Shown piece after piece: positions 10,201 through 61,790 of a stretch of DNA of 64,000 bases (positions within the stretch are counted from its first letter, which is position 1; each line of letters opens with the position of its first letter). The position numbers and the translations under genes are program-made. This DNA is from Euglena gracilis. Its lineage: Eukaryota. The notes under the pieces were generated by a model. That model was not told where the DNA came from. It ran no database searches and worked only from the letters and a program-made list of their open reading frames with translations. The stretch covers positions 33,085,455 through 33,149,454 of the forward strand of contig CP154954.1 in the NCBI GenBank assembly GCA_039621445.1, in the 5' to 3' direction.

Positions 10201-13200
10201 CCCGGGAAAGGGGTGACTCTGGGGCCAGGCTCTGAGTATGGCCTGGGTACAGGTTCCGGTGCCAAGCGTCGGAATTTTGGGGGGGGGAATGCAGGTGTAT
10301 GTTATTTCGGTTTGAGGTTGTTGCCCGGCAAGGACAGCCACCGGATCCCACCGGATCCCACCGGATCCCACCGGGGGTTTTTTGACCACTTGACTAGTGG
10401 GTTCCCACCGGACCCCACCGGATCCCACCGGATCCCATCGGATATTTTTTTCCATGCACAGATTTTTCTTCTGGATTCATGGCCCCAAAGTCTGATGGGT
10501 TGCCTTTTATAAAAAAAAAACAACAAGACCTTTTCCTTCAAGTCAAAAAAAGTTGAAAGATATGATTCGCGATGGTAAATATTTGGTGGCCATTGTGGTG
10601 GATGAAACCGACGTCCCTAGGGACGGGGCAAAAGGTCCCGAGCACCTGGTTGTGCCCATTCAACAGAGCCAAAAGGTGACTCATGTGGGACAAGAAAAAG
10701 AGGCCAAGACCTTGACCTTGGGGGCCATGCATGTGGTCATGCTGTGCACCCATTGCATGATGCAACAAGAATATCCCGTCAAGCCACCTTGTTGGGGGTG
10801 TTTTTTTCCCAGTCCCCCCCCCCCAAGGCAACCCACGGAACCCCACCGATCCCACCGGATCCCACCGGAGACCAAAAACCGGGGACGACTGTCTTTGCCT
10901 GGTTGTTGGTGGAGAAGATTGCATTCCCCCCCCCTTTTAAGCGTATTGCGCTTTTCATTGATATTTTGGTGCTCCCCCCAAAAAAATTGTTCAAAAAAAT
11001 TCAAAAAATGAACATTTTTGTTGTTTTTTTTGGGGGAAAAAGTAGGGGATTTTTCCACTCAGGCCAAAATTGTTCAAAAATATCTGTTTTATCCGGCCTA
11101 GTATCCCTTTGGCCGTCCACAGAACCGAAAATTTCCGGGCCCTTAAAGATTCCGGCCCCTTACCATTTCGAGGTGACAATGGGGCTCCAACCCCTTCCCC
11201 TCCATGTTGGCCTCCTGGGGAAATGCCTTCAGATAGCCCGATTTTTTTGGGACACCCCCTGGTGGGGTGTCCCACGCCAGGCTGGGGGGGGGTAGGGGAC
11301 TCCCCTCTCCACGAGATTTAAAGCAATGTTTGTGATGAGAACTGATTCCCATGCCCCACCTTTCATTTCCCAGTTTCTTTCCTGCGTTGCAGGTGCTGAA
11401 CCTCCGGGACAACGCCCTGACCTCTCTCATCTTCCTCCGCTCGGAATCGGAAGCTGGTGACAGCTCTGCCAACCGCAACGAAACGTTGGAAGTCATCGAC
11501 GTTGCAATGAACCAACTGGCATGTCTGGATGGTGTGCTCCAGCCCCAATCTGTGCGGTTTTGCAGTTGCTCTGGGAGGGTCAAAGCCAGTACAAAGGAAA
11601 ATTTGAGGCCAATGAGGGGAAACTGAAAAAAAATATTGCACCCCCTCCCCCGCTGCACCCCTTTGAAGACAATCGAGCAAGGCAGAAGCCCATCGATTTT
11701 CTGAAAATAGTGTGTTTGACAATGATTGATACCGCAAGATTCAAAAAATACCAGTCAAAAGGAAGGGCCAAAAACACAAAAGATCAGAATTTATCAGCCC
11801 ACAGAACCCTGCCTTCAGATGACCAAATAATATTGTGCGATATTACAATTGAAATATACGATGTTGCAATTGAAGTCACACATTCTTTTGCAATGTATAA
11901 TTGGCCCTAACCAAGTCAGGGGTTTTTTTTAGTCGTGGACCCCGGGGGGGGGGGGAGGGGGGGGAGGGTGGGTGGGTCCGGCCGAGCCACTCAGGGGGGT
12001 CCCCCCAGGGGGGAGTGGGATATACTTTTCGGCGCGGAAAATTTTTGAAAAAGTGCTGTTTTTGGATTTTTCGCGATTTTTGAGTGGGTCCCCGGGGCCC
12101 CCCCCCCCCCGGGCCCCCCAGGGGGTGGGTGGGGGGGGGACCCCGTCCCCCCGGTCCCCTGAACCCAGTACATCATTGGCAGGGGAGTCCAAATTCGTCA
12201 AGGGAAGTGTACCCGTTGCACCAGCGGTGGCGAGTTGAAGCCAAGTCAAGTGTCCGTTCCAGTTCCAGGAAGGTTCCACCTGCAGACCTTCTCCAGCACC
12301 GACGTCCTTCTCCGGCAGCCGCGGCCTCGGTTCCCTTCCCCCCCCCCCCCGCCGCCCCATCCCCCACCCCCCGGCAGGCCTGGAGGGCTGCCTCCGCCTG
12401 TGCGCCGTCGACTGCAGCAGCAACCACGTGGCGGAGCTGGCCCCGCTGCGCCACTGCTCGGCCTTAGCCACCCGCCAGGCCCCTCCCGGCGCATTCGCAA
12501 CCCCGGACGTCAGGGCGTCGTTGGGGGGTCCCGCCAGCCAGCAGCCATTTCCCTTCGACACGTTTTAAAACCCCCCTCCCATCTATGACCACCCCCCATC
12601 CTATAACCCCCTCCTGGGACCATCCATCAAACCGGGACCTATAACCCCCCCCCCTCAACATTAGACAAACAAAGACAAAACAAAGGGGGACCTATAACCC
12701 ACCCCCCACCTATAACCCCCCCTCCGGGGGCCGACCATTGAACTGGATCCTATAATCCCTGGGGGGGTTATATATGTGGGGAGGGGGTTTTATTTTCCAG
12801 CCTCCCTTTGGGAGGCTGGACGGCAGCAGGATTTGGGCTGGTTTTGGGTTTTGGACGTGCAAAAATTGGCAAAAAAAATGGGCTAAATGGGTCTGAAGAA
12901 GGCTTGCCAGGACGAATTTTGGTTTGAAAAATGCATTTTTTTTGCATCATTGGCAGTTTTTGGCAGCATTTTTGCAGTTTTGATTTTTTTGGTTTGGTTC
13001 GGCTCCCAGTCAGACCGAGTTTCAGCCAGGGAGCCTGGGGAGCATGGAGAGTCCCCCAACCCACCAGAGGGTACCCCCCACCTCCGAGGGGAGGGTCCGG
13101 GGTACCCTCTGTTTGTGGGTCACTTTTGGGGTCAAAAAGGTCGGCGCTTCGTGCCAAAAAAAGGCCAAAACCCTTTGGCAGGAGACCCACAAGGCCCTTG

Positions 13201-16200
13201 TAGAGACGGAAGCTGCGAACCCGCTCCACGGTTGACCCTGGCAGGTGACTCCGACCAAGCTGGATGCGTACCGCAACGACCTGACCGACCTCTCCGTCGT
13301 CGCCCACCTGGCCAGCGCCCGCGCATCTGGCGCATCCGCCGACCGTGCCCCAGTTTGCAGGCGGATCTCCGCGTACATGAATGCATGAAATGTTAGCAAG
13401 CTTCATGCACAGCTGCCAAGAATGGGTGCATATGACGGCTTTTTATTTTATTTGGTGGATGGTGCTGTCGGGGTCGAGGTGTAGCACACACATGGCAAAG
13501 GTCACCCTCGCCATTACGATTTGCCCTGGCCTCCATCAACCCCCCCCCCCGACCCCACGGCACGGGCCCCTGACAGCCCTTGACGCCCCCCCCCCCCACG
13601 GCCGGGTGCTGCCCCCGCCCCGACTACTGTCACTCGGCGCGGGCCGCAACGCCCTCGCCGACCTCGGCCCCTGCCTCCGGCGGCCGCTGCTCCTGCAGAC
13701 CCTCCTCCTGTACCACAATCACATCCGGGCCCTCCCGCCGCAGCTGCACACCGTGCTGAGGTCCAGGCTGGCAGGCCCCTCATGTTCATTCCTGGGGCTT
13801 TTCCTGCAAAAGAAAACACACCGAAGGAACCGGAAAATTCCAGCATCAAATGCCTGGGGTATACCGAAATTCCTGCGATTGCAACAAATGGGTCGGATGG
13901 TGTACGCCCAATGACATCCGGCAATGCCGCTATTGTGTGTATGGTTTCGAGCAGCAGGAAGGTTTTTGCTTGGCCCATTGATTTGAGATAATCCAAAAAA
14001 TCCACCACAATGAATGCACCTCGAGCGATAGGCTTTGAGGTAAGTTTAAGGAATGCATGGCAGCAGATGGGTGTGTCGTTTAACGCCTCCCGCCACACCG
14101 AGATTCGCGCAGGGTGGCCAGAAAAAGAGTGGTTCCAGCCCAGGCCTCCGGCCAATACTGCAGCAGCTCTGGCTGAACGAGAACCACATCGGGCGCCTGC
14201 CCGCCCTTTCCTTCGCCCCCCTGCTGTGCCACCTGCAGCTGAACTCCAACCGCATCGCTGGTGTGCCCCATTCCCGAAAAGGGTGGCTGCGGCTTTGGGT
14301 TGCAGCCGGGGACGTGGCGCACATTTCCATTCCACACACGGCCCTTGGGGCACCCCCCCCCCCCCGGGTGGGCCCAGCGGACCAGCCAACTCTCCCGCCC
14401 CCTCGGGTCCAAACTTAACAAAATTCCTGGTCCGGTCATCGAACCAACTAAAACCCCCCAAATATAAAGCCCCCCCAGCTTTATATTTGGACAGGATTTC
14501 AAGACCCTCAGGGGGGGCTTTATATTTGGGGGGGATCAAACTTTTTTGGGAGGCCTCTATGACCTTCGGCAGCCTTCAATTGTGGCCAAATACCAAAACA
14601 AATTTTATGCCAAATTTTCGTTGCGTACTACCTATTTTACCCAAAAATGTGCAATTATTGTCCAAAAAAAATGGTCCATTTCTGGCGAAAAAAAATGTTG
14701 CATCCACCCAAATTCTTCTTCTTTTTCTTGAATGGCACCATCGTCCGGCTCCACATCAGGGCAGGGCGGTCCATAAGGGACGGGAAGTTTTTTTTTTTTT
14801 TTTTCGTTAAGGACCGCCCCTTAAGGACCGCCCCCCCGACCAAGGATCGACCGGGACTTGAACGGGGGTCGAAAACCAAAAAGTCGAAAAACGCATTCTT
14901 TGACGCTATGGGCGGATGGGCGATGTTCCAAAAGTGCCAGGAATCACTTTTTTTCCCGAAGTCGACCCGTTTCGGGCAAAATACGGCCACTTTTCGGTCA
15001 TGGATTTTCAAAAAAATTTCTCGGCTGTGCCGGGACGGGATTTTTTTTTTTTTTTTTTTGCTTAAGGACCGCCCTGCATCAGGGGGGGGGGGGGCTACAT
15101 TTGGGCGGCAAAACCAAACCCCCTGGGGGGGGGGGGCTTTAGATTTGGGGGGAGGTTATTATTTTGGATGTGGTCCAAAATAGAGAATTCAAAAAACGTT
15201 ATTTTTTGAGGGTTGGATGGACAATGTTCCCGGATGCCAGAAATATTTTTTCTTCCTGGATTTGGCTTGTTTTAGGGATTTTGCGACTTCATTTTTTTTG
15301 GCTCAGTCGATTTTTCTGCCAGTCCATTGAATACAGGTTGTTTCAGGCACCCTCAGGCATTTTCAGCATTTTGACGGAAGAAATTTTGAGGCATTTTCAG
15401 GGTTTCCAGGCTTTTAGGGCGCCTCAAAGAACATTGATTGCTTACCCTCTCCGCGGCAGACATCGCGGGCCTCGCGGCGTGCCTGCAGCTGGGGTCGCTC
15501 GACCTGTCCTTCAACGCCCTCGGCGACCGGGGCCAGTGGCGGCACCTCGCCGGCTGCCGGCGGCTGCAGGCCCTCGCCCTCAACGACAACCCGGCTACCC
15601 ACTGGGCCGCCCTCCCCGCCGGCCCCCAGCGGCAGGAGGAGGTCCCCATGCCACCACCCCCCGGCGCTGCTGCCTCTTGGCCCCTGCCTCTCATGGTGTT
15701 GCGTTGCGGCGGTCCCGTCCCCGGCTTGGACCCGCATCTCCCCATGTCTCCGTCAGGTGGACCGTTACCGCCGGGAGGTCATCGCGCTGCTGCCGGCACT
15801 GCGCGAGCTGGACAACGCCGACGTCTCCCCCACGGAGCGCCGGGCGGCGCAGTCGGCCGCGTTCGCCGTCCCCGGGCACCGGCACCTGCTGGCATGCCGC
15901 CGGCTGCCCAAGGTGGGGGTGCCGAGGGTTTCTTTGAGGACGAGCGCGAGACAGTCGTGGTTCGGTTTGTCTCCCCTCGAAGGTCCAGTGCAAACGGCTT
16001 CCTACGTCACCCATTCCCCGATTTGGTCAACCATCATGACACGATGAGAAGTTGATCAGCGTGTCCATACTCATCAACCCCGGCCTCCTGGCCCCTCGGT
16101 TGCCATTTTGGCAGGAGGGGGGTTGCCCTGCAATTCCACTCCGAGGCTGCTCTCTGCCCCCACTGTGGCCAACCTGGTTGCAAACAGGGTTGGCTCCCCC

Positions 16201-19200
16201 CCTTCACTGGCCCATTTGGCTGAACCCAACCTCCCCAGACCCCCCCCCGCCTTGCCCCCGTGCTTCGACCACAACCTGCCGCTGCCCGCAGTGCTGCTGC
16301 AGCCCCAGCCCGGCGGGGCCCCGCCCACCCCGGCCTGGGGGCCCATCCTCCGGGCGGGGCCCACCTACCCGCCGCCCCAAACCAGGCATTATGTTTTGAG
16401 GTGGAAATTTTCAAATATTTTAAGTGCTTTTAAAGTTATTTATTTTTAATTAAATTTATTAAATCCATCCATCCAAGGACCCATCCGGGAGTCGAATGGG
16501 GTCCAAAATCAAAAGTGGAAACCTCCTATTTTTTGAGTCGGGGTGGAAATACAACTTCCCAGTGATGCCAGAAATTATTTTCCCCGGAGTTGGTTATTTT
16601 TTTTGCCGAGGGTTTTCGAATTTTTGCTCGGTTGGAGAAAAGTTTTGCCAACAATGATTTCTTATCAGCTTCAGAAGGGTTAGAAAGGCGACTTAAAAAA
16701 AAGCAATGCCTGCCCCGACCCCCAGCGGGGTTGTGGGACACCCGCTGCAGCGCAGCCTCGGCCCGGAGGCCTGGCGGCTGCGGACGTTCGATGCGATGTG
16801 CCCGAGGGGCTTGCCTGGGGGGGCCTTTGGTTGTTGGCCGGTTTCCTCGGCAGGCAGCAATGTATGCCTCCATTTGGTGTCTGGGTTTATTTTTGCCTTG
16901 ATTGACGAGCTTGCCAATAGTATTAGCATCGCACTTTAAATCTAACAGACAATCAACGATTTGGTATATAAAAAGCCCCAGCTCATACCCATTTCCTTCA
17001 ATTCGTTTTTGGCTTCAATTAGCCAACCGCAAACACAATCAGCTTTATTACAAGGAGCAAATGTCCTGTGCTACCCTCAAAGATCCTGTTGCTGCCCTTA
17101 AAGGTGAAATGCATCTAGGTTGGCAATGTGTGGTTAAATTATCCCACTCTGCTTGTATGCAGCCATACACGGTCATATTTCCCGTTTCCTCTTCAATTTC
17201 CTCATCCGGCAGATTAAAGACATTCATGGCGGTGATTCGGTCTTCTGGATTTGTGTTGGGGTGAAGTGCCGCACCATGTGGTTGAACAACGTCCCCAGTT
17301 ATCATGTGCAAGTCCATCGCGAAAAGATAAAGCACAGCAAGATCAGTCTAATCGATGCAGTTGCAGAAATGGGCAGGATTCTTTGATATTGATGATTCCA
17401 GTGGAACGAGGATGGTCGGCCCGCGATCCGCTGGCCAAGCCCCTGGCCCCGCTCCGCCCAGCGGCGGGAGCAGCACGCCCAGCGCCAGGCGCAGAAGGCC
17501 GAGCTGCAGCGGCTGCCGCCCCCGACCTCGTCCGGTGTGCCGCAGCACCAATGGACTCCCGACCAGGTTCCCTGGGAGGCGCAAGGATGGCTAGATAGGT
17601 CCCCATTGAGAATTGTTTGTGCGGAAGTGTGCCAGCTCTGGCCAAATGAAACCAGCTCCACTTTCCAAGCCACACATCGGACGTATCATTTGGCAAACGT
17701 TTGACCCCTCCCCCTCATGCCCAGGGTCGCACAGCCACCCGAGTCAGGCGGACGTGCTCGCCGCCCGGCACCAGCTGGAGCTGTACCACGCGGAGGAGGC
17801 GGTGCGGCTCGCGGCGCAGCACGTGGTCCAGCACGCGGACTGGAACGCCGCCCCGCACCAGGCAGTGGTCCGCCTGTCCATTGCATACCGGCCAGGCCGC
17901 CCCGTCTGCCGACGAGAAGAGTTGGTCCGCCCCGGGGTCGACCCCCCTCCTCCGCAACAGGCTTCATTTTTAACTCGAAAGACCTTTCTCGGGGTGCGTG
18001 CGGTCCGGAGCCGGGCCCCCGGGGGGAGGGGTCCCGCGCCGGACCCCTTCCCAACCCCCAACCGAACCCCCATGGGGACCCATGGGGTCTGGGGATCGAC
18101 GCCGGGCGGTGGTGGCGGTGGCTCCGGGTCCAAGCACTCTGCACAGGGGGGGGGGGGGGTCTGCCGCCAGCAGCGGCTGCGCAGCCACCGGGAGCAGCAG
18201 GCGCGGCAGCGCATCGGCCGGTGGCTGGGCGGGCGGCTGGCGGTGCGCCGCGCGGTGGCGGAGCGGCGGCGGCGGGCGGCGGAGCGGTGGGAAGAGTGGC
18301 GGCGGCGGTACGAGCAGGAATTTCTTCGGATTGGACCCTCACCCCACCACCTGGGGGGGGGGGGGGGCGGCAACCAGCCAGCACCTTTTCCCCGGCCGGC
18401 AGCTCCCAGCCGGGCCACAGACCCCCCAGGGGAGTGTCTGGTCCAGGTCAGCACCTCCGGCAGGCTGGCTGGCGGGACCCCCCTTCAGGAATTCCTGGGG
18501 TCCGAGGTAGCGTGCCGCCGCATCCAGCCCGTGTGGCGGGGGGCCGTGCTGCGGATGCGGCTGGCCCGGGTCAAGGTGCGCTGCCATCCGCTTCAAGCAG
18601 AAATGCCACAAACTGATTGGGGCAGCCCTCCAAATGTGTAAACCATCGTATACTGTATTGTATTGGGGTTCAGCTTCATCCGGAAGGATGGGGCACCCAC
18701 TGTTTGCTTGTGGGGGTTCGGCGGGTGGGGATCTTACCAAACAGGGGGGGGGGGCACAAACGCGTTTGTTTTTTTTTGCTTTTTTGTGTGTTTTTCAATT
18801 TTGGCAAGATTTCAGGCTCTTTTTGTGTTTGTCCGGGTGCGGTTATTCAGTTTTTTTTGCGTTAACGTTTTTTTTCCTGATTATGAAAATTCCTCATTTC
18901 GGCCCCAATTTCCCATGGGAACAAAATTTTTGTCAAATTCCTGTCTTTTTTGCATTTTTGGTCAATAAATCTGCATATTTTTATGAAAATACCCCACAGA
19001 GGTGGAAAAATCCTCTCCAGCAGAAAATGTACATCCCGGGGGAGCTCCTGACGGACAACGCATGCAAATTGCGGTTTTTGCATTATTTGTGTTCATTTGT
19101 GCTTTTTTTTTGCGTCATTTTTGAGGATCCATGTTGTCTCCCCCCCCCCCCCCCCATACCATGGCTTAAGGTGTCCGAGCACCCCCCCCCCCCCCGGGTG

Positions 19201-22200
19201 ACTGTTAGTCCTTGGGGGGGGGGGGGGGTTGGCCAGGAATGACCGAAAGTGGCCACCCTGCGCCGAAGACACCAGAAATTTGGGGGGGTGGTTTGGCCAA
19301 ATCCATTTATTTTCAGCGTTTTTGGCCCGAGTGGCTAACCCAGGGGGGGGGGGACAGGAAGTGATTGACCAGTTTTTTGAAAGTGGAAAGTGACCCTCCC
19401 CCGCAGGGGGGTCGGTAAGCAATGGTAAACCTCCCTCCCAACTGACCTGGCGGGCCCTTGCTCCTGGCAGTGGCCAGATAACCTGGCAGGAGGGGCAAAA
19501 AACTTGGTTCCAGTAACTTGGCACCCCCTTTTCAGGCAAAATTCCTTTATGGCGCTGAGAAAAGGGCCCAAATAGCCTGGCGGGGGGGGGGGGGCAGGGC
19601 CAAAAGTTGGATCCAATAGCCTGGCACCCCGTCAGGTTATTTGGGGGGGGGGTTATGGTGAAGGTCCCATCAGCCGAACGAATGCACTCGCAAGCAGTGG
19701 TGGCCTCTGGAGCATCCATAATTTGTCTGTGTCGCTGAAGTCAAAGTTTTGGCAGGGACATCAAATGAGGTTGGAACCAGAGATTCATTTAACACTTGTG
19801 TGACCCCCCCCCGGGGGGGGAGTTTCGAGAGTGGGTGAGTGGGTTGGGCCCGTGGACTCCCCTGAGGGGTGGGGTGCGATAGGGTCGGATTTTCTGCCTG
19901 GCCAACGGCCGGGTCAGAGAAGTTTTTGAGGCGATTTTGGCTGGATTCTGGGTGGGTGGGCGGGTGGTTGACCCCCGTAGGGGGATTGTGGGTGGGTGGG
20001 TTTTTGAGACAAGTGGGTGGATGGATGGGTGGGTTTGGCCCCGGGGGAAACGTGCCGCCCCGGGGGGGGGGGGGGGGCCCAGTGCATCTATGGTTGGAAT
20101 GGTTATGTGCCACCTCCCCTGTCCCCTGCCCCCGTGGCATTGTCCCCCTCCAGCTGGAGGACGACGACGCGGAGCTGTACGGCCGGGTGGAGGTGGCGTT
20201 TGACGAGGAGAGGTACCTGCCCCGGGCGGTGCTTGTCATACTCCCCCCCGTGATGACGACGACGGGTGTGGAGTGGGGAAGAAGGCTGGGCGACGGCGGA
20301 AGAAGACGGGCTTTCTTTTCTTCGTGGTGGACCGCCCTGCCCCCCCCCCCAGCAAAGCGCTCGCCCGGTGGCCGGCCGTCAACGTGTCGACGGTGTTGGC
20401 GCAGGCGATGGCGGCCCATGGCCTGGACCGGCCCCCACCGGACCCCGCCGCCCCCACCCCCATGGAGGAGTACCTCCGCCGCAACCCACCGCCGCCTGCC
20501 CCGTCGCCGATGCCGGGGCCGGGGGCCCCGCCCAGCCTGCCGCCCCCACCCGACCCAAACACCCAGGGTTGACCCAGAGAACCACCCTCCCAGTCCTTCC
20601 AAAAAAGTTTTTATAGAAATTCATCACGCTTTCTGTGAAGTTCACCACTTGTTGTTTGAAAATTCAGAATTCTGTTTTGGTGACTCCTAATTCAGTTTAA
20701 AATTTGAATTTCACAGACAGAAGGTTTGGAATCTTTTCAACATTCGATTTTCCGCTCATGCCATCTTCTGCATACCGCATTTTCCGCTGATCTGAAATTT
20801 TCATCGTTTCTTTTTCGCCATCCATTATGATGCATTGGAAACGCTGTACCGGCTGAGCCAACGAACCAACCGAAACGACTGAAAAACAGGCCAAGACACG
20901 TTGAGGTTGGGGGAAGACCGGTCAGCGCCCTGTAACCGACGCCAGCCGCACGGTTCATGCCTGGATGAACGACAGTGCGCCACAGCCTGTCCCGAGCCAC
21001 GGTGTGCCCCTCGCTTTCCTGGGTGCCTGCCCCCCCCCCATCGACATCGATCTTTTTTCTCGGTAGTTTAACTTTTGAAGGTTTGAACAGATGTATTTAT
21101 ATTTCATTTGTTCCCGTTTATTTATATTTTATTATTTTATTATTATTTTATTTTCTCCCATTTCTGAACTTTTTTCTGGTTAGTTTTCTTTTTATTTGCT
21201 CAAAAAGGACACAAAAAAAGCAAGGCAACAAAAGAAGTGGGATTTTATTAAATTTTAAGCTTTGCTTTGACGCCTTTAAGAAGTGTGTCTTGGAATGTTT
21301 ATTTAAACGGCCGGGAATGCACTTTTCATTTTTGGTGGCTTTTTACGCACCTGCACATTCTTTTTTGACCAAATGTGTCGCCATCACTTGACGGGGCGGC
21401 GCACCCGTCAGCTGGAACCCGTGGTACCAAAATTAGTACCACTGCTTTCGACCCCCGGGTTTTTTTCTGGGTAAACCGACTTTTTTCGTTTTGAAAATGA
21501 CGGTTTACCACCTCCGCCGACCGTGTGGAAACCCCCGTCTGCCGAAGTTGGTGCGACACGAAACGCTGTATCGCAAGGGCGAACCCTCGTCAGGTGAAGC
21601 TGTTGTACCTGTCGCTGTCCCCCCTGTTTTGTGGTGCCCAGTGAATGCGCAGGTGTGCATTCACCCCCCTCCCCTCCCGGACTTTTCCTGAAGTTTCAGT
21701 TATTGTGGCTCCTGGGGGTGGGGGTGGGAAGGGGGCATTGTGGTCTCTACGGTTAGACTGGAGGGGAGGTTCTGTACCCTGTGTTGGAAGCAGGGCACAA
21801 GGGGGCGCTAGCGAAGGTTTGTTCTGTGCCTGTAGTCTGCATTCAGAGAGTGGTGGGGAGGGTATGTTTAAATCCACACCAGATGTCTGTAGGGGAGGGC
21901 TCGTTACCTTTCGTTAGGCTGCCTGCTGTTTGCATTGCACACGGTGCACTGCGCCCCTCCTTGACACATGCAGGCACAGCATCCCTCCAGTGGCACCCGC
22001 AGTCCGTCCCGCATGCCTTCTCATAGGCACCACGGCACATCACCATGTGCGACCACCTGTGTTTAGGTCTGACGTTTGGGATGGGCTGCTGGGTATGGAG
22101 GGGGGGGCTGGCTTGCATTCCTCTCCTGTGTGTCACTGGTTTTAAAAGCTACAAAACGGAGCCCCACTTCAACCCTTTTTGCCACAGACTACACCCACCA

Positions 22201-25200: not shown

Positions 25201-27011
25201 ATATTTGTTCCACAGTTTCGTGTTTGGTCGTTTGTTGGATTGTCGTCTGGGTTTTTTGAGCTCCATTTGGGCGACGTTGGGGTTTTGTGTCATGGGGCTG
25301 CCGTAAATCCATAAAAATTCAGGAACCCTTTCTTTCGCCGTTTTTTTTTAAAAGCCAATAATAAAGAAAATGTGGAGTGAAAATAGATAAAAGTGTCATT
25401 GAATAAAATGAATAAAATTGCACTTTAAGTGCAATTTTTTTAAATATTTTTGTGGTTTTTCTAGTATTGCTTTGAAGAAAAAATCTTGTGTCAAAAATCT
25501 TGATCTTTGAATTGTTTTCGATATTTTTTTCTTTGCTCATAAAGCTAAGAAAAGATCCTAAAATCCAAAAAAACATAAAAAAACACAAATGACATTTTGG
25601 GGTGCGCTTTGTGCAGTTTGGCCTGCACTGGGCTGGGCGGGAGGGAAACCCCCCACCTTTAAGTCTCCACCAGCCTTGGTGGGGTGGGGGGTGAGGGACC
25701 AGGCTTCTGCTCAAGGGTCTGCAGTACCCCTCAGCAGGGGGGGGGGGCTCGACTGCAGCAAGTTCAAATTTGGCTAGTGGACCCCTGGGGGGGGGGGGTG
25801 CGCAAGCAGGGCCAGTTTGTGGATTTTTTTGACAGCCCAACGCCTGCCCCAAATGACCGTTTTTGGCAATTCGGGATTTTTTTGAACAAAATTAGCCCAA
25901 CAACGCCCTGAAAGTCCCATTTCTGCCTCTGACACACAGCGCCGGAGGAGCTTTTTTCCCCCATTTCAGGGGGTTTCAGCCGAGGGGTCTAGCCAGTGGC
26001 TTTTTTCCCCATTGGCTCGGAAAATGGTTTGCTTAAAGACCTCGGTCTTTAAGCAAAACTGCGCGGGGGACAGTGGCAGGCTTTGCTCCCCCCCACCTTC
26101 CCCCGCACAGGCCCCGGTCCGCCGGCCGGCACACCGGCGGAGGAGTGGGGCGGCGTGGCGGACCGCATCCGGCGGATGCAGCGGCGGCGGGAGACCCAGG
26201 CGCGGCGCACCGCCCAGCGGGAGGCGCAGCTGCCCCCGGAGAAGCGGCTGGAGGCCCTGCACCGGAGGCTGGACCAGCAGTTCGCCCGGGGAGGGGCGGT
26301 CTGTGTGTGGGTGGGTGCGTGGGTGGGGGTGTGGGTTTGGGTGTGGTGTGGGGGTGGTGAGAATGGGGGTGGGGGGGTGGGGGTGGGTGCCTGAGCGTGG
26401 GCGCAGCCTTCTGAAAACATCTAGTCCGATTCCCCCAAATGAGGGTCTAAAGTAAATGCTTGATAAAATTTGGTAGTCCACCGTTGTCCTCAGAGCAAGT
26501 GAAAATTTTTCACGCATTCCTAGCTTAGGATTTATGTTCCAAACCATTGAAAGCCCTGTTCTTTTCTCGCACATTTTTTCTGTGCCAGAAATTCATTGAC
26601 TCCTGGCATTTTTTTTGTTGATTAAACTTGTCTGGTTTCCAATGTTTGGTGTTTCAACGTTTTCGGTTTTATTTTCAACGTTTCAGGCACCGCTTTAGAT
26701 TTTGGGGGTGGATTGTGTTTTCGCCTAGCCCCGGCCTCAATGGCCCACCACCAGGAATGTCTGTGGCCCAAACAATCCCTGGCAAGCTGCCTCGGCCGCG
26801 GCTGCGCCTGATGGCACCAACAGCATTGTGCGGAGCACCTGGTGGAAATTGGACACAAGCGTGAAAAAAAGTTTGAATTTGGTTTACATGCATGTGTGTG
26901 TACGTATAATGTAATGTGTGTATGTGTATATGTATTTGTGAATGCACGTGTGTACGTATCCGCATCCATATATGCATACATATTTGTGTATGTACATGTG
27001 TATGTATATGT

Positions 27012-27066
<55 letters not shown>

Positions 27067-29372
27067 GTGTATATGTATATGTCTATACGTATATGTATAT
27101 GTATATATATGCATAGGTGTGTATGTAAATGTATATGTATGTGTTTATGCATACGCATATGTATATGTATGTGCATATGCATATGTATCAGGGAATTTTT
27201 TTTGTCCAGACCCCACCCTATTTACCTGGGGGGGGGGGGCTCCCAGCCAGCACTCATTTTCCCCAGCAAGCAGCTCCCCAGGCTGTGAAACCCCCTGGCA
27301 GTCAGTGATAATAAAGTTTTCGCAACCCGGCAAGCCAGGGCTTGACTATCCCAATTTTTATATATACATCTATATATATATATATATTATATATATATAT
27401 TATATATATATATATATATTTGTCTTTTGTGCGCCTGAAGTTGGGATTTGGATTTTCGATAAAAGTCCAAAGAACACCTTCATCACCTCTGGCACCTGGT
27501 GCCGCCAGGGGTCTGAACTTTTGGGATAGTCTTACTGTTGGCAGTCCACAGGTTCTCATTTGGGAGGGTTGATGCACATCGCTACCGCATCCACTCACCT
27601 GTGGGGCATAAGCGTAACCACAACCAGATTTAGATAACAGGCCAAATGTTCAAGAGCACAATACAAACAGCACAACAGGAACATTTTCTTTGAAACCCCC
27701 CAATTCAGTCCTACAAAGGAAAAAAATTAAAAAGCACTAAAATAATTTGGATCTGCAGTCTTCGTCCAAAACTTTATTTAATATTTCACATACAATTGTC
27801 CCCGTATACATATACGGCAAGTGGGTAGCAGCCCCCCCCCGGGGGGGCCTGCTACCCGCGGGGCCTGTTAACCCTAACCCTAACCCAGTGCAGGGTCGCG
27901 GGTAGCAGGGGGGCCCCCGGGCACCCCTGCTACCCGCCTGCCACATGTGCATATACATGTACATATACATATATTATACAGATACAGATGCAGATATATA
28001 TATATATATATGTTCAGATTCATGCACATATGCATATACGTATATGAATACAGATACAGATACAGATATATATACAGATACATATACATGTACACATACA
28101 AATACATATAAGTAAAAAATACATATACACGTATGCATATACATATACACACATAAGTATATGCAAAAAAACATATACATGCACGTATGCATATACGTAT
28201 ACATATGCATAAACATATGCACATACACATACCTATACACATACACATATACATATGCATATGCATATACATATACATATACACATATTCATATGTGTAT
28301 ACGTATATGTATATATATACGTATATGTATATACGTATATATATACAAATATTCATATGTGTATACGTATACGTATATGTACATGTGTACATATACGTGT
28401 ACATACATGTACATATACATATACATATACACATATACATCTACATTATACACAGCATATGTATTTCGAGGATTGGGAGGTTGGGGGTGGCTGCTGCTGT
28501 TGTTGATGGGAGGGCGTCGCCGCGGGGCCGGGAGTGTCCGGCAGGCCTGCAGGCCAGCCTGCTGGAGTCAATGGGCGGAGGCCGGCCGACCGACATCGAA
28601 CTGCAGTCAGTGCCGAGGGCGGGCCCAACCCCCCCCCCCCCAAGGTGCAAACTCAGCTGGGGTTGCGGTCGGGGACCAGGGTTCGGGGCTAGGAGGGTGC
28701 CACGGCTTTAGGTAGTGGATCTACCCCCTCCTTGGCCGCCCCACCAGCCAAGGTGTCTGGACCGATCCCAGGGAGGTAGTCAGACCCTCAATTTTCAGTT
28801 TCCAGCGCTTTACACCGAATTTTTTTTGGCAATTTTGACGAATTTTGCCCAAAACCTGCCCAAAATTGCAGTTTGGGTCCATATGGGGGGATTTTTCAGC
28901 CCGACGCCCAAAATCCTTCATTTTGACCACGCACTGTTTTAGGCGTTGGGGTCCCACCCCTCCGGGGGGGGGGGGGGGGGCCCGACCCCATCCACCTGCC
29001 AGGGTTGGTGACGGCTGGCTGGTGTTCCGTCCTCCACTCCACCTTCTGTCTACCCACAGCCAAAAAAAAAACACCGCCCCACATCCATGTCCAGCATGTG
29101 CCATCGTTGTGCACAACATGGCGTCGGGGGTCGGCCTCGGATGGCCCGCCCTCCGCCCGTCCTCCGCCAGCCGCAGCCTCGGCGAGCGTTCCCGCACGTT
29201 CGGCGCGCTCGGGTCGTCGCGGGAGGAGGCGGCCGGCGGGCCGCGGACGGGCTCCGCCCCCTCCGCGCCGGGGGTGTGGGCGGACCGGGCGTCCCCGGGG
29301 GGCGGCTCCGCCCACCGCAGCCTGCCGGGCAGCTTCGGCAGCACCGGGGACGTCCTGAATGGACCCCGTTGA
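1415..29372 (+). CDS. Multi-exon gene for a coiled-coil + leucine-rich repeat + LRRcap + IQ-motif protein (LRRIQ1-like); 5' end probably upstream (candidate exon 233-253)
   Basis: Phase-compatible exons read by eye: 1415-1537, 1821-1985, 2631-~2841, ~2910-3019, 3090-3126, 3528-3721, 7421-~7594, 8273-~8479. LRR exons: 11393-11531 ([12 protein letters not shown]...[15 protein letters not shown]), 12378-~12472 ([24 protein letters not shown]), 13260-13309, 13617-~13760 ([13 protein letters not shown]...[15 protein letters not shown]), ~14152-14260 ([11 protein letters not shown]...LQLNSNRI), 15460-~15605 ([11 protein letters not shown]...[10 protein letters not shown]). LRRcap exon 15757-15912 ([20 protein letters not shown]). 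IQ exon 18504-18575 ([17 protein letters not shown]). Then 20154-20212, 20353-20560, 20938-21001, 26111-~26283 and a putative last exon 29171-29372 (TGA). The LRRIQ1 label comes from domain architecture only. Confidence 0.8.
2045..2558. repeat. (TG)n/(GGGT)n microsatellite in an intron
   Basis: Directly visible; lies in GT-AG intron 1986-2630. Confidence 0.98.
7123..7220. repeat. (CT)n microsatellite
   Basis: Directly visible. Confidence 0.98.
11917..12161. mobile_element. hAT-like MITE (CAGGGG...CCCCTG) with an 8-bp TSD
   Basis: aaccaagt|CAGGGG ... CCCCTG|aacccagt (7/8 identical flanks). Confidence 0.75.
12566..12791. mobile_element. TA-flanked MITE with CTATAACCCC repeats
   Basis: AAAACCCCCCTCCCA ... 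TGGGAGGGGGTTTT ends flanked by TA; a related decayed copy lies near 63350-63700. Confidence 0.6.
13310..13616 (+). other. Euglenid nonconventional intron (LRR gene)
   Basis: Junctions cac ct|ggcCAGCGCCCG ... CGGGTGCTGccccc|g ccc cga. CAG at +4, CTG at -8, 9-bp terminal stem (one G-T pair), Y|R at both ends, no GT/AG. Removal restores [16 protein letters not shown], a clean LRR unit. Confidence 0.85.
14762..15076. mobile_element. hAT-like MITE, TIR CAGGGCGGTCC(A/T)TAAG, perfect 8-bp TSD
   Basis: catcaggg|CAGGGCGGTCCATAAG ... CTTAAGGACCGCCCTG|catcaggg; homologous along its length to 60671-60983. Confidence 0.95.
17890..18168 (+). other. Probable nonconventional intron (LRR gene)
   Basis: tac c|ggcCAGGCC ... 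GGTCTGccgcc|ag cag; the +4/-8 rule and Y|R junctions are met and the join is in frame. An alternative in-frame GT-AG intron using an upstream donor is also possible. Confidence 0.5.
18312..18503 (+). other. Nonconventional intron formed by a MITE with a 9-bp target duplication
   Basis: cggtacgag-CAGGAATT ... AATTCCTG-gggtccgag: a perfect 8-bp inverted repeat (18315-18497) with 7/9-identical direct repeats. Removal joins [17 protein letters not shown] (IQ motif). No in-frame GT/GC-AG alternative was found. The exact junction can slide within the repeat. Confidence 0.75.
20561..20937 (+). other. Nonconventional intron (LRR gene)
   Basis: aac|accCAGGGTTGACC ... GGTCAGCGCCCTGtaacc|gac. The +4/-8 rule is met with an extended stem and Y|R junctions. 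The unspliced frame stops at 20572; splicing gives [16 protein letters not shown], and that exon ends at a GT donor in phase with exon 26111. Confidence 0.85.
24921..25038. repeat. Perfect 59-bp tandem duplication
   Basis: CTTGGCACCAAAGCACAATTGCTTCAACCTGCCATGTGGTTTGCTAGGAAGACAAAATT occurs twice, head to tail. Confidence 0.95.
26885..28445. repeat. Cluster of (TATATG)n, (TA)n and (CATATA)n microsatellites
   Basis: 26885-27188 TATATG-type, 27360-27419 TA, 27945-28445 CATATA-type (opposite orientation to the first). Confidence 0.9.
27816..27942. mobile_element. Mini inverted-repeat element containing (TAACCC)3
   Basis: ac|GGCAAGTGGGTAGCAG ... CTGCTACCCGCCTGCC|ac; two GGGTAGCAG...CTGCTACCC hairpins flank TAACCCTAACCCTAACCC (27869-27886). 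Confidence 0.75.
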
Positions 29373-38155: not shown

Positions 38156-44745
<6,590 letters not shown>

Positions 44746-46641
44746 CACCCTAGGCGCGGGGAACCCGGCCTCCAGCTATGGATTAACTGCACGCCCCCAC
44801 CCTTGGACTGTCTCCTGCCGTGTTGATTGGACGCGTGATGCAGTACGTTTGTCTTTTGAACCCCTCAAGTGACCGGGTTGGCATGCTCCATTTGTTGGAT
44901 TGCGCATTTTGATGGTCTGTGTTTTCATCCATGAACTCATCGTGCCAACCTGGAAATATGGAACGCAGTACATAAATACTTTCCCACGCAAATTTAATCT
45001 TTCTAGTACCATCTTTCTAGTACCTCGTCATTTGGGCATTGCCATATTCTTCCCAATGCTAATAAAACAAGAATGGTATTTTTTTAAGATACAGATACCC
45101 TTCAAAATTTTGACATTTTATGCACCCAGTTCCTGGGACAGTGTCACCAAGGGTTTTCTCAAGCCACCCCCCCCGGGGGGGGTTCCATTCAGCCAGCACG
45201 TTTTTTTTTCCAGCCAGCAGCTCCCAGCTGGGCTGTGGGCCCCCCAGGAGATCCTCTTAAATGAAGTTTAGCCAGCCCGGCAAAGCCGGGCGGGGCCGGA
45301 AAAAAAGGAGTCAAAGTGGCCAAGAAATGCATTTTTGAAGGGGGCTGTTTTTAGGGATTTCAGGGTTTTTAGGGTTTTTAGGGGTTCGGGATTTCTAGCT
45401 AAAAAAAAACCCCCAACCCAGCTGGAGTTGGACATCTCTGCCATTTTTCGGGTATCTGCCGGGGCCAGCTGCCAGAGGTCGGACCCCCCCCCCTCCGAAC
45501 CCCCCGCCCCTCACCTGGCTGCCTGGGGGGTCCAGCCAGCACCTTTTTCTAGCCGGCCCGCCTGCCCCCCCCCCCCCCCCGGAGGTTCTTAAATGGAAAC
45601 CCCTGGCTGGCATGCCCGAGAACCTGTCAGGTCCCGCCCGGGATGCTGTCCGAAGCCCCTGTACCGGCCAATCTGTCATCATGGCAAGTTGCCAGGGTCC
45701 CTGGTACTGTGGTACTGGCTGACTTTTCATGTGACAGTGTCCCAGGTGGGAAGGTGTGCTTTCACGGATTTTTCTACAAATTGTGTGGAATCCTTGTGGC
45801 AAACAATTTTATTGGTTTATTTCTGTGCCTCACACCTTTTGCAAAAAAAGATTGAGGGGGGACTGAATATTTTTTCCACCTCAAGGGTTGTGGTCGCACC
45901 AGCAGGTTGTTGGGGTGAAACCAGGGCTGATTGAAAATCTCCAGTTTGCGACTTTCCTCTCCTGCAGAGATAAACAGCCCTGGAGTCAGTCGCAGCCGTT
46001 CAGCACACTTACCAGTGGGCGTACCCCTGAATTGCTTTTGTTTCCGGAGGCACCACCCCTCGTCTCACAACGTCTGTTCAAAATCCCAAAATTGTAGGTG
46101 TACCTGCTTTTGCAAGCAAATTCACTTCCACCGTTGCTGATTGGCTGGTTGGGAGAAACCCTCATTCAGCTTCGATATTTGTTTGACAATGTGGTGCATT
46201 GAGACGGTTGTTATGAAAAAACCTGCTTAAGGCATCCCATGCGCATCCACACCTTGAGTGGTGTGTCAAATGATTCGGCCCCAGTTTAGCATCCCAACAG
46301 GTGGGGCAGCCACCTTGAAAAAAGGATTTCCCCCCCAAAAAATATCGGGGCGCGGCCCGCAAACATTCAAAGAACAAAACAGAAGCAAAGAGATAAAAAT
46401 GCCAATCCAATCGCTGAGTAGATTCAGTTGGACGCTTTGTTCACTGGCCGGGGCATTTTTACGCTATGCACCTACCAGTGTGGGAGGTTAAGCCTGGGAG
46501 CATAGAAAATGGCCCCCGATTTTTTCTTCTGGAGCGCCCCAATGACAGTTCAATCCTCCAACTCGACCCGTGCCACCCGAACCCGCAGTGCGTCGCATGC
46601 CGTGTGTCGTCTTTTTCCTCCGGGCGGTGTGAGGCACCGGG

Positions 46642-61790
<15,149 letters not shown>

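Follow-up and report, generated by a model that had tools for sequence, protein, structure and literature searches.

A probable nonconventional intron in a Euglena gracilis gene and its resemblance to a dispersed repeat family

We analyzed a 64,000-nucleotide stretch of the Euglena gracilis genome (assembly GCA_039621445.1, contig CP154954.1, positions 33,085,455 to 33,149,454 of the forward strand). This stretch is called the window below, and position 1 is its first letter. Our subject is an insert at 18306-18506, in which an element flanked by a short direct repeat interrupts coding sequence. We found that the insert is very probably an intron of the euglenid nonconventional type, which lacks GT-AG borders; it is 192 nt long and best placed at 18312-18503. 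Judged by sequence, the body of the intron appears to consist of two partial copies, inverted relative to each other, of a repeat family dispersed through the window. These observations suggest an intron of a type ordinary for Euglena, and its link to the repeat family is suggestive but unproven. Insertion of an element resembling MITEs (miniature inverted-repeat transposable elements) is put forward, tentatively, as the most likely history.

RNA and DNA evidence for removal of the insert

Of 24 sequencing runs listed for a single organism, four were aligned, as reads or as contigs, to 13900-19100: raw RNA reads (X23 and X24), assembled contigs (X15), and DNA contigs (X1). X15 had at first only been guessed to be RNA, and a spliced contig shows its RNA origin. 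This contig (record 9; 1880 nt, depth 24.7) carries the window segments 14155-14259, 15459-15639, 15755-15905, 16260-16379, 17724-17887, and 18167-18310. Because these pieces are contiguous in the record, the contig is spliced RNA. Its last 112 letters pass 18575 and equal the window at 20154-20183, where they are preceded by ...ccctccag. This leaves 73 letters between record positions 186 and 112, and these are 18503-18575. Thus, the transcript skips exactly 192 nt, in frame. In length, the skip corresponds to the element and a single flank copy, and excision joins ...RRRYE to VACRRIQ... in frame. The X15 depth was 24.7 at 18508 and 0 at 18448. Among the X23 raw reads, 5 cover 18508, 0 cover 18448, and 8 are spliced at 18575 into the exon at 20154.

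A preliminary description of this DNA had proposed that the insert is removed as an intron and had allowed for its retention in mRNA. The spliced X15 contig bears out removal, and the segment is not always retained; as for retention, RNA depth was zero at 18448, the single position reported within the element. The mRNA keeps the variable bases of the 5' flank copy (TAC), which settles a choice between the two copies that the description had left to RNA data. The description was also right that the 192 nt contain no in-frame stop: the insert sits in a 343-codon open frame at 17610-18638. Shuffled versions of the insert were also open in 1506 of 5000 cases; therefore, its lack of stops is uninformative.

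The X1 DNA contigs cross both ends of the element, in pieces covering 17262-18344 and 18395-18625 that are interrupted at a tract of 15 G residues (G15), with loose poly-G ends at 18353 and 18370. X1 has 67 listed differences from the window in 5201 nt (~1.3% of sites). The X15 exon pieces match the window haplotype (five of the six listed are free of differences), and at 18508 four of the five X23 reads carry the X1 allele. The insert thus occurs on two haplotypes that have diverged, and RNA similar to either of them is found without it. That the insert is in the DNA of both haplotypes argues against an insert-free allele, and such an allele in the cultures from which the RNA came is unlikely.

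Splice register and intron class

Because CGAG is present on both sides of the skipped segment, five registers yield the same mRNA, with the borders CG..TC, GA..CC, AG..CG, GC..GA, and CA..AG; none of the five is GT-AG or GC-AG. The code published for nonconventional introns in Euglena is 5'-N3CDG-/-CH'GN5-6|R, with complementary middle bases (PMC12501133; this and the other papers are cited from excerpts). Only the register 18312-18503 fits it. Random pseudo-introns of these lengths fit the code in 0.15-0.5% of cases (50,000 trials each). The downstream exon starts with a purine (G at 18504), and both junctions are pyrimidine|purine (C|G and C|G). These junctions agree with a model from 2014, in which a pyrimidine ends both the upstream exon and the intron and a purine starts the intron; that model also mostly has C at position 3 of the downstream exon (PMC3935182).

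For the 9-bp flank, spacings of 3+6 or 4+5 had been offered. The first (18312-18503) fits the code; the second (18311-18502) starts the exon with a pyrimidine. In Euglena, a 1-bp insertion in the 5' spacer led to loss of function (PMC12501133). Since a change in the 5' spacer abolishes function and an extra 3' base is tolerated, the spacing is 3+6.

The same transcript mixes at least two further non-GT-AG introns with three GT-AG introns (14261-15459, 15642-15756, and 18576-20153). Coexistence of the two kinds in one gene has been described for Euglena (PMC12501133); the mixture is characteristic of that genus and on its own suggests a euglenid host. A second intron that fits the code, 17890-18168 (279 nt), reads GGC-CAG...CTG-CCGCC|A and has no canonical register. 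A third, 15906-16259 (354 nt), has the pairing ends CAAGG/CCTTG, which lie outside the strict code. The next intron begins AAC-CAG at 16380. Its 3' end could not be placed, nor could two exons, 166 nt in total and located between 16380 and 17723, from open frames and splice codes, which allow 540 compatible solutions. The nonconventional introns with known coordinates are all multiples of 3 (354, 279, and 192 nt; 1 in 27 by chance), and the open frame 17610-18638 spans two of them, which might reflect a tolerance of retention.

A GT(18308)...AG(18506) spliceosomal intron was rejected. It would be 199 nt long and out of frame, and it would leave 66 rather than 73 letters before 18575. SOS-type or artefactual skipping in a vertebrate gene was also dropped: other joints of the same contig are non-GT-AG and fit the Euglena code.

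The skip might still have arisen without splicing, through reverse-transcriptase template switching at the CGAG microhomology in a GC-rich, structured stretch or through an allele lacking the 192 nt. The 4-nt microhomology at the joint, the G15 tract, a GC content of 70% in the stretch at the skip, and 81% complementarity of the sequences around the insert (18297-18312 and 18511-18526) would suit such an explanation, as would the absence of canonical splice sites. However, this joint matches a specific code from the literature, which 0.2-0.5% of random joints match, and another skip in the same contig fits it as well. Depth inside the element is zero in two RNA sources of different years, and the element is in the DNA of window-like and divergent haplotypes alike. 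We consider a skip of this kind very improbable.

Several observations weigh against the assignment as a nonconventional intron. The joint from 18310 to 18503 was derived from contig coordinates, depths, and the length of the loose end and is not displayed directly. The raw-read support from X23 is small, and X24 has 0 reads at both 18508 and 18448. The downstream exon has G as its third base, where the 2014 model mostly has C. A 3' spacer of 6 nt is tolerated in Euglena, with 30-40% fewer transcripts than a spacer of 5 nt (PMC12501133). The predicted fold of 18300-18515 is not stabler than those of shuffled sequences (z 0.66; 145 of 200 shuffles are equally or more stable). Its minimum-energy structure lacks the CAG/CTG pair, and the 3' palindrome pairs with itself.

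If the published code applies, the splice ends would be recognized through a CAG located 3 nt inside the 5' junction paired with a CTG located 6 nt inside the 3' junction. The purine that begins the next exon would be part of this recognition. The imperfect 9-bp flank would supply the 3-nt and 6-nt spacers. Removal would take the element together with one flank length and would leave the coding sequence as if there were no insert. The excision machinery may, as the papers suggest, be separate from the spliceosome and release the intron as a circle.

The probable nonconventional intron shares many traits with those described in euglenids (PMC12501133; PMC3935182). These are the lack of GT-AG borders, a CAG 3 nt from the 5' junction that pairs with a CTG 5-6 nt from the 3' junction, a downstream purine, a junction that can slide along a direct repeat, pyrimidine|purine junctions, and coexistence with GT-AG introns. 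In Euglena agilis, 71.8% of introns are nonconventional, and 84.4% of all introns are "slidable" owing to short direct repeats (PMC12501133). The present intron differs in its 3' spacer, which is 6 nt where 5 is preferred, in its long flanking repeat (7 of 9 positions identical), and in its paired ends, which extend to 8 bp. It also differs in having a body from a dispersed repeat family, which the excerpts of these papers report for no such intron.

Two other systems also remove elements from exons. Introners of Micromonas, Aureococcus, and dinoflagellates are likewise members of repeat families within exons that are removed together with one copy of the duplication, so that coding is restored (PMC11282704). 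This likeness would favor a spliceosomal introner like those of Micromonas or dinoflagellates, with GT-AG sites partly made by the duplication. Introners use GT-AG sites and the spliceosome, however, and here no GT-AG register exists and the intron fits the Euglena code. An introner is scarcely credible as an explanation. SOS splicing in animals also operates without GU-AG borders and buffers exonic DNA transposons; it is triggered by pairing of terminal inverted repeats and depends on the factors AKAP17A, CAAP1, and RTCB (PMC12779559). It cuts at several sites, its products carry small indels, and only some of them are in frame, whereas the transcript here has one precise in-frame joint. The word Euglena occurs 0 times in the excerpted text of that paper.

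Insert ends, repeat family, and possible origin

The insert has an ordered geometry (Table 1). Its ends, CAGGAATT and AATTCCTG, form a perfect 8-bp inverted pair, which becomes 10 of 12 when extended. The flanks CGGTACGAG and GGGTCCGAG directly abut these ends and are identical at 7 of 9 positions, with an exact match over the final four (CGAG). A 9-bp duplication had been claimed at this site; flanks of that length are present, in the imperfect form just given, and none of three other copies has one. The 3' end CAGGAATTCCTG (18486-18497) is a 12-nt palindrome that contains AATTCCTG. The two ends can equally be read as a direct repeat (91%) or as an inverted repeat, and because the 3' end is palindromic, they are as much the one as the other. 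The inverted ends match at 8 of 8 or 10 of 12 positions, yet 3 of these bases are demanded by the splicing code.

We compared this arrangement with chance, using 654 non-low-complexity 8-bp inverted pairs spaced 60-600 nt apart within the window. An inverted pair with flanks matching at 7 or more of 9 positions was found once, at this insert, against 0.39 expected. Thus, the pattern of terminal repeats plus flanks is by itself within chance across the window. It draws its weight from its coincidence with an intron defined by RNA. The terminal motifs are mildly enriched: with up to 2 mismatches, CAGGGGTTTTCT occurs 16 times where 10.3 are expected, a count attained by 3 of 100 shuffles, and CAGGAATTTCTT occurs 15 times against 6.2 expected (0 of 100 shuffles).

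The first ~125 nt of the intron are part of a dispersed repeat. A profile was built from five other copies in the window (27183-27348, 45141-45296, 45474-45625, 41705-41829, and 41517-41635), with the intron excluded. It matches 18309-18439 with an expect value (E) of 8.9e-14 and 47 bits, and with E 3.5e-16 when only the intron is searched. The same profile gave 0 matches in all 10 of 10 block-shuffled windows. By in-window blastn, the 5' half of the intron matches the sequence from 27189 onward (E 2e-9 to 4e-9) and 45175-45251 (E 1e-9 to 4e-9). The similarity to 27189 proposed in the preliminary description is therefore significant in both searches, and the motif CCAGCCAGCAC-Tn recurs, as it had said, near 41766, 45190, and 45532. 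Colinearity with 27189-27297 held for the 5' half; the end at 27297 is uncertain, since the family runs to ~27348. In all, six other copies or fragments of the family lie within the 64 kb.

The boundaries of the family were then compared with those of the intron. Across six pairs among the four copies with a 5' part, the 12 nt that begin at CAG are 72% identical and the 12 nt immediately upstream 31%, so the 5' edge of the family coincides with the CAG of the intron. This 5' terminus is common to the intron and three copies; at its 3' terminus the intron departs from the family. The right arm of the intron resembles the family core in inverse orientation, with a weak profile match (5.6 bits, E 0.0016 in a 201-nt search). 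Within it, 18464-18483 is identical at 20 of 20 positions to the reverse complement of 12523-12542. The summed depth of X1 over 18250-18423 was 4518, against ~79 nearby, which suggests many related copies genome-wide, although the figure is inflated by the G-run. A metagenome scan with the family core returned 0 loci.

How the repeat came to form an intron can be argued in two ways, and one precedent bears on both. Intron 4 of gapC in Euglena agilis strain ACOI 323 was recently gained (PMC4770533). Like the present intron, it is nonconventional and has an unusually long junction repeat, there of 8 nt, which is read as a trace of its origin. Unlike here, other strains lack the intron, so that the gain is documented. 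Its authors favor double-strand-break repair, and the excerpts of their paper report no repeat family. The sums of the spacers match the repeats in both cases: 3+5 equals the 8 nt of the gapC repeat, and 3+6 equals the 9-bp flank here.

Our tentative choice is that a MITE-like transposon with terminal inverted repeats entered the exon with a 9-bp target-site duplication and that its CAG...CTG ends made it spliceable as a nonconventional intron. Perfect inverted ends that directly abut a direct repeat, and an excised length of one element plus one repeat copy, would be expected from such an event. A body drawn from a dispersed family whose similarity begins at CAG, the high X1 depth (for part of which the G-run accounts), and the agreement of spacer sums with repeat lengths are also consistent with it. 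Three other copies have CAGGG...CCCTG-like ends that match at 8-9 of 12 positions, ends that were picked by searching for them. Weighing against a transposon origin, the flanking duplication is absent at all three other copies checked (2, 1, and 2 of 9 positions), and the pattern of inverted pair and flanks is within chance. The 3' end is not common to the family, and the right arm is only weakly family-like. The nearest copies in the window are ~72-82% identical to the intron, with no visible recent activity.

Alternatively, the intron may have arisen or been remodeled without transposition, either by double-strand-break repair with repeat sequence as filler or as an older nonconventional intron that later gained repeats. 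Break repair has been proposed for the new gapC intron with its extended direct repeats (PMC4770533). Moreover, the body here resembles two inverted fragments rather than one family unit, and the family copies vary in length and lack duplications. However, random filler does not predict a family boundary that falls exactly on the CAG of the intron, and the outermost 8 bp of the element form a perfect inverted pair; both speak against this origin. We regard an origin without transposition as possible but somewhat doubtful.

With regard to the insertion of a MITE-like element, two descriptions given earlier go beyond the evidence. The insertion had been called relatively young; 2 of 9 positions separate the flank copies, the nearest copies are as diverged as given above, and the insert is also on a haplotype ~1.3% divergent. 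It had also been called still recognizably a transposon; CAG/CTG ends and a short junction repeat are ordinary for introns of this type, and none of the three copies has a duplication.

A MITE-like origin of nonconventional introns has been a hypothesis since 2014, based on their inverted ends, and recurs in papers of 2024-2025 (PMC3935182, PMC11282704, PMC12501133, PMC12621601). As of 2014, transposable elements had yet to be identified in euglenid genomes (PMC3935182). In the literature searched, as excerpted, we found no nonconventional intron that had been assigned to a repeat family with copies elsewhere. A repeat whose 5' edge falls on the CAG of the intron fits this old idea. A further, speculative step, which we think unlikely, is that the G-run/CCAGCCAGCAC repeat is a present or past mobile MITE-like family whose CAG...CTG ends and 8-9-bp target duplications have the very geometry read by the splicing code, a spacer of 3 nt plus one of 5-6 nt. 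If so, every insertion into an exon would vanish from the mRNA along with a stretch of one duplication length. The locus would then be the first at which a Euglena nonconventional intron is tied, by sequence, to a dispersed repeat family, and the splicing code would have evolved as a system that erases transposons at the RNA level.

Other features of the family and its surroundings were recorded. The sister copy at 27189 has a possible inverted end, ...GAAACCCCCTG, at 27297, with flanks matching at 2 of 9 positions and no duplication. It is flanked by (TATATG/TATACA)n-like microsatellites, which occur at 26900-27190, 27950-28460, and 56500-57620 and are ~70-75% alike. The copies at 45148-45605 and 41522-41826 are paired, 190-330 nt apart, with the spacer motif GG-GTCAAA-TGGCCA-GAAATG. 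They have CAGGG...CCCTG-like outer ends (9 of 12) and are perhaps longer composite units of the family. The nonconventional intron 17890-18168 holds a G13 tract, and the summed X1 depth is 5326 over 17902-18075; this intron thus also contains repeated DNA. In-window BLAST found no copy of the family in the other introns of the transcript, and no copy of 17890-18168 itself.

Table 1. Coordinates of the insert, its neighboring exons, and related repeats in the window
Feature	Position	Strand	Basis or remark
Upstream coding exon (...WEEWRRRY-)	18169..18311	+	Record 9 piece 18167-18310, 0 differences
Flanking direct repeat, copy 1, CGGTACGAG	18306..18314	+	6 exon bases and 3-nt 5' spacer GAG
Probable nonconventional intron, GAG-CAG...CTG-GGGTCC, then exon G	18312..18503	+	192 nt; registers starting at 18311-18315 give the same mRNA
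Left arm, family member (CAGG-T-rich, ACC-CTG, G-run, CCAGCCAGCAC, T-run, CCGGC, GCAGCTCCC)	18309..18439	+	Profile match
5' terminal repeat, CAGGAATT	18315..18322	+	Includes CAG (18315-18317), the splicing code's 5' motif
G15 tract within left arm	18353..18367	+	X1 DNA contigs break here; poly-G reads accumulate
Right arm, putative short inverted copy of family core	18420..18502	-	Alignment, E 6e-5; profile on minus strand, 5.6 bits
3' terminal repeat, AATTCCTG	18490..18497	+	Includes CTG (18495-18497), the code's 3' motif
Flanking direct repeat, copy 2, GGGTCCGAG	18498..18506	+	6-nt 3' spacer GGGTCC and exon bases GAG
Downstream coding exon with IQ-like motif, ending at a GT donor	18504..18575	+	8 raw X23 reads and the X15 contig continue into 20154
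Family-core fragment inside the same gene region	12523..12560	+	In-window match
Sister copy between microsatellites, CAGGGAATTTT at 27189	27183..27348	+	E 1.8e-37; itself a profile member
Two family copies (41517-41635, 41705-41829)	41517..41829	+	Alignment or profile
Two family copies (45141-45296, 45474-45625)	45141..45625	+	Possibly one longer unit, 45148-45605, with ends 9/12

Host gene and neighboring sequence

The host gene appears to carry an IQ-like motif and exons that resemble leucine-rich repeats. Excision of the insert had been said to restore the IQ motif. We found instead that the IQ-like motif (18522-18560) lies wholly downstream of the insert and is never interrupted. Pfam did not call an IQ domain in the IQ-like region, even at E 10, and its leucine-rich-repeat matches in the upstream exons were all below threshold. 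Four other open reading frames (ORFs) gave nothing above threshold and one sub-threshold match to Comm. Rfam gave 0 matches across the whole window.

A word-based search with the IQ exon found no homologue. A full HMMER search with the 283-aa read-through found one protein, P0001 (73 aa, 96% identical). P0001 is a read-through ORF from a single 1711-nt Logan contig, matches 17757-17969, and runs from an exon directly into a nonconventional intron. It therefore supplies no orthologue for a comparison with the empty site. As P0001 shows, ORF-based gene calling translates nonconventional introns that are GC-rich and in frame.

Two further regions of the window stood out. The segment 34000-36000 is 74% GC. 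Its open frames are 380-620 codons long on the minus strand and 300-410 codons long on the plus strand, and the longest had no Pfam match. Within the GT-AG intron 14261-15459, a very high-copy repeat occupies 14422-15117. Of the four bins over this repeat, three had a summed X1 depth between 1.7e5 and 4.7e5 and the other had 3.2e4, against ~60-80 for single-copy sequence, and many X1 contigs break at 14454, 14534, 14761, and 15099.

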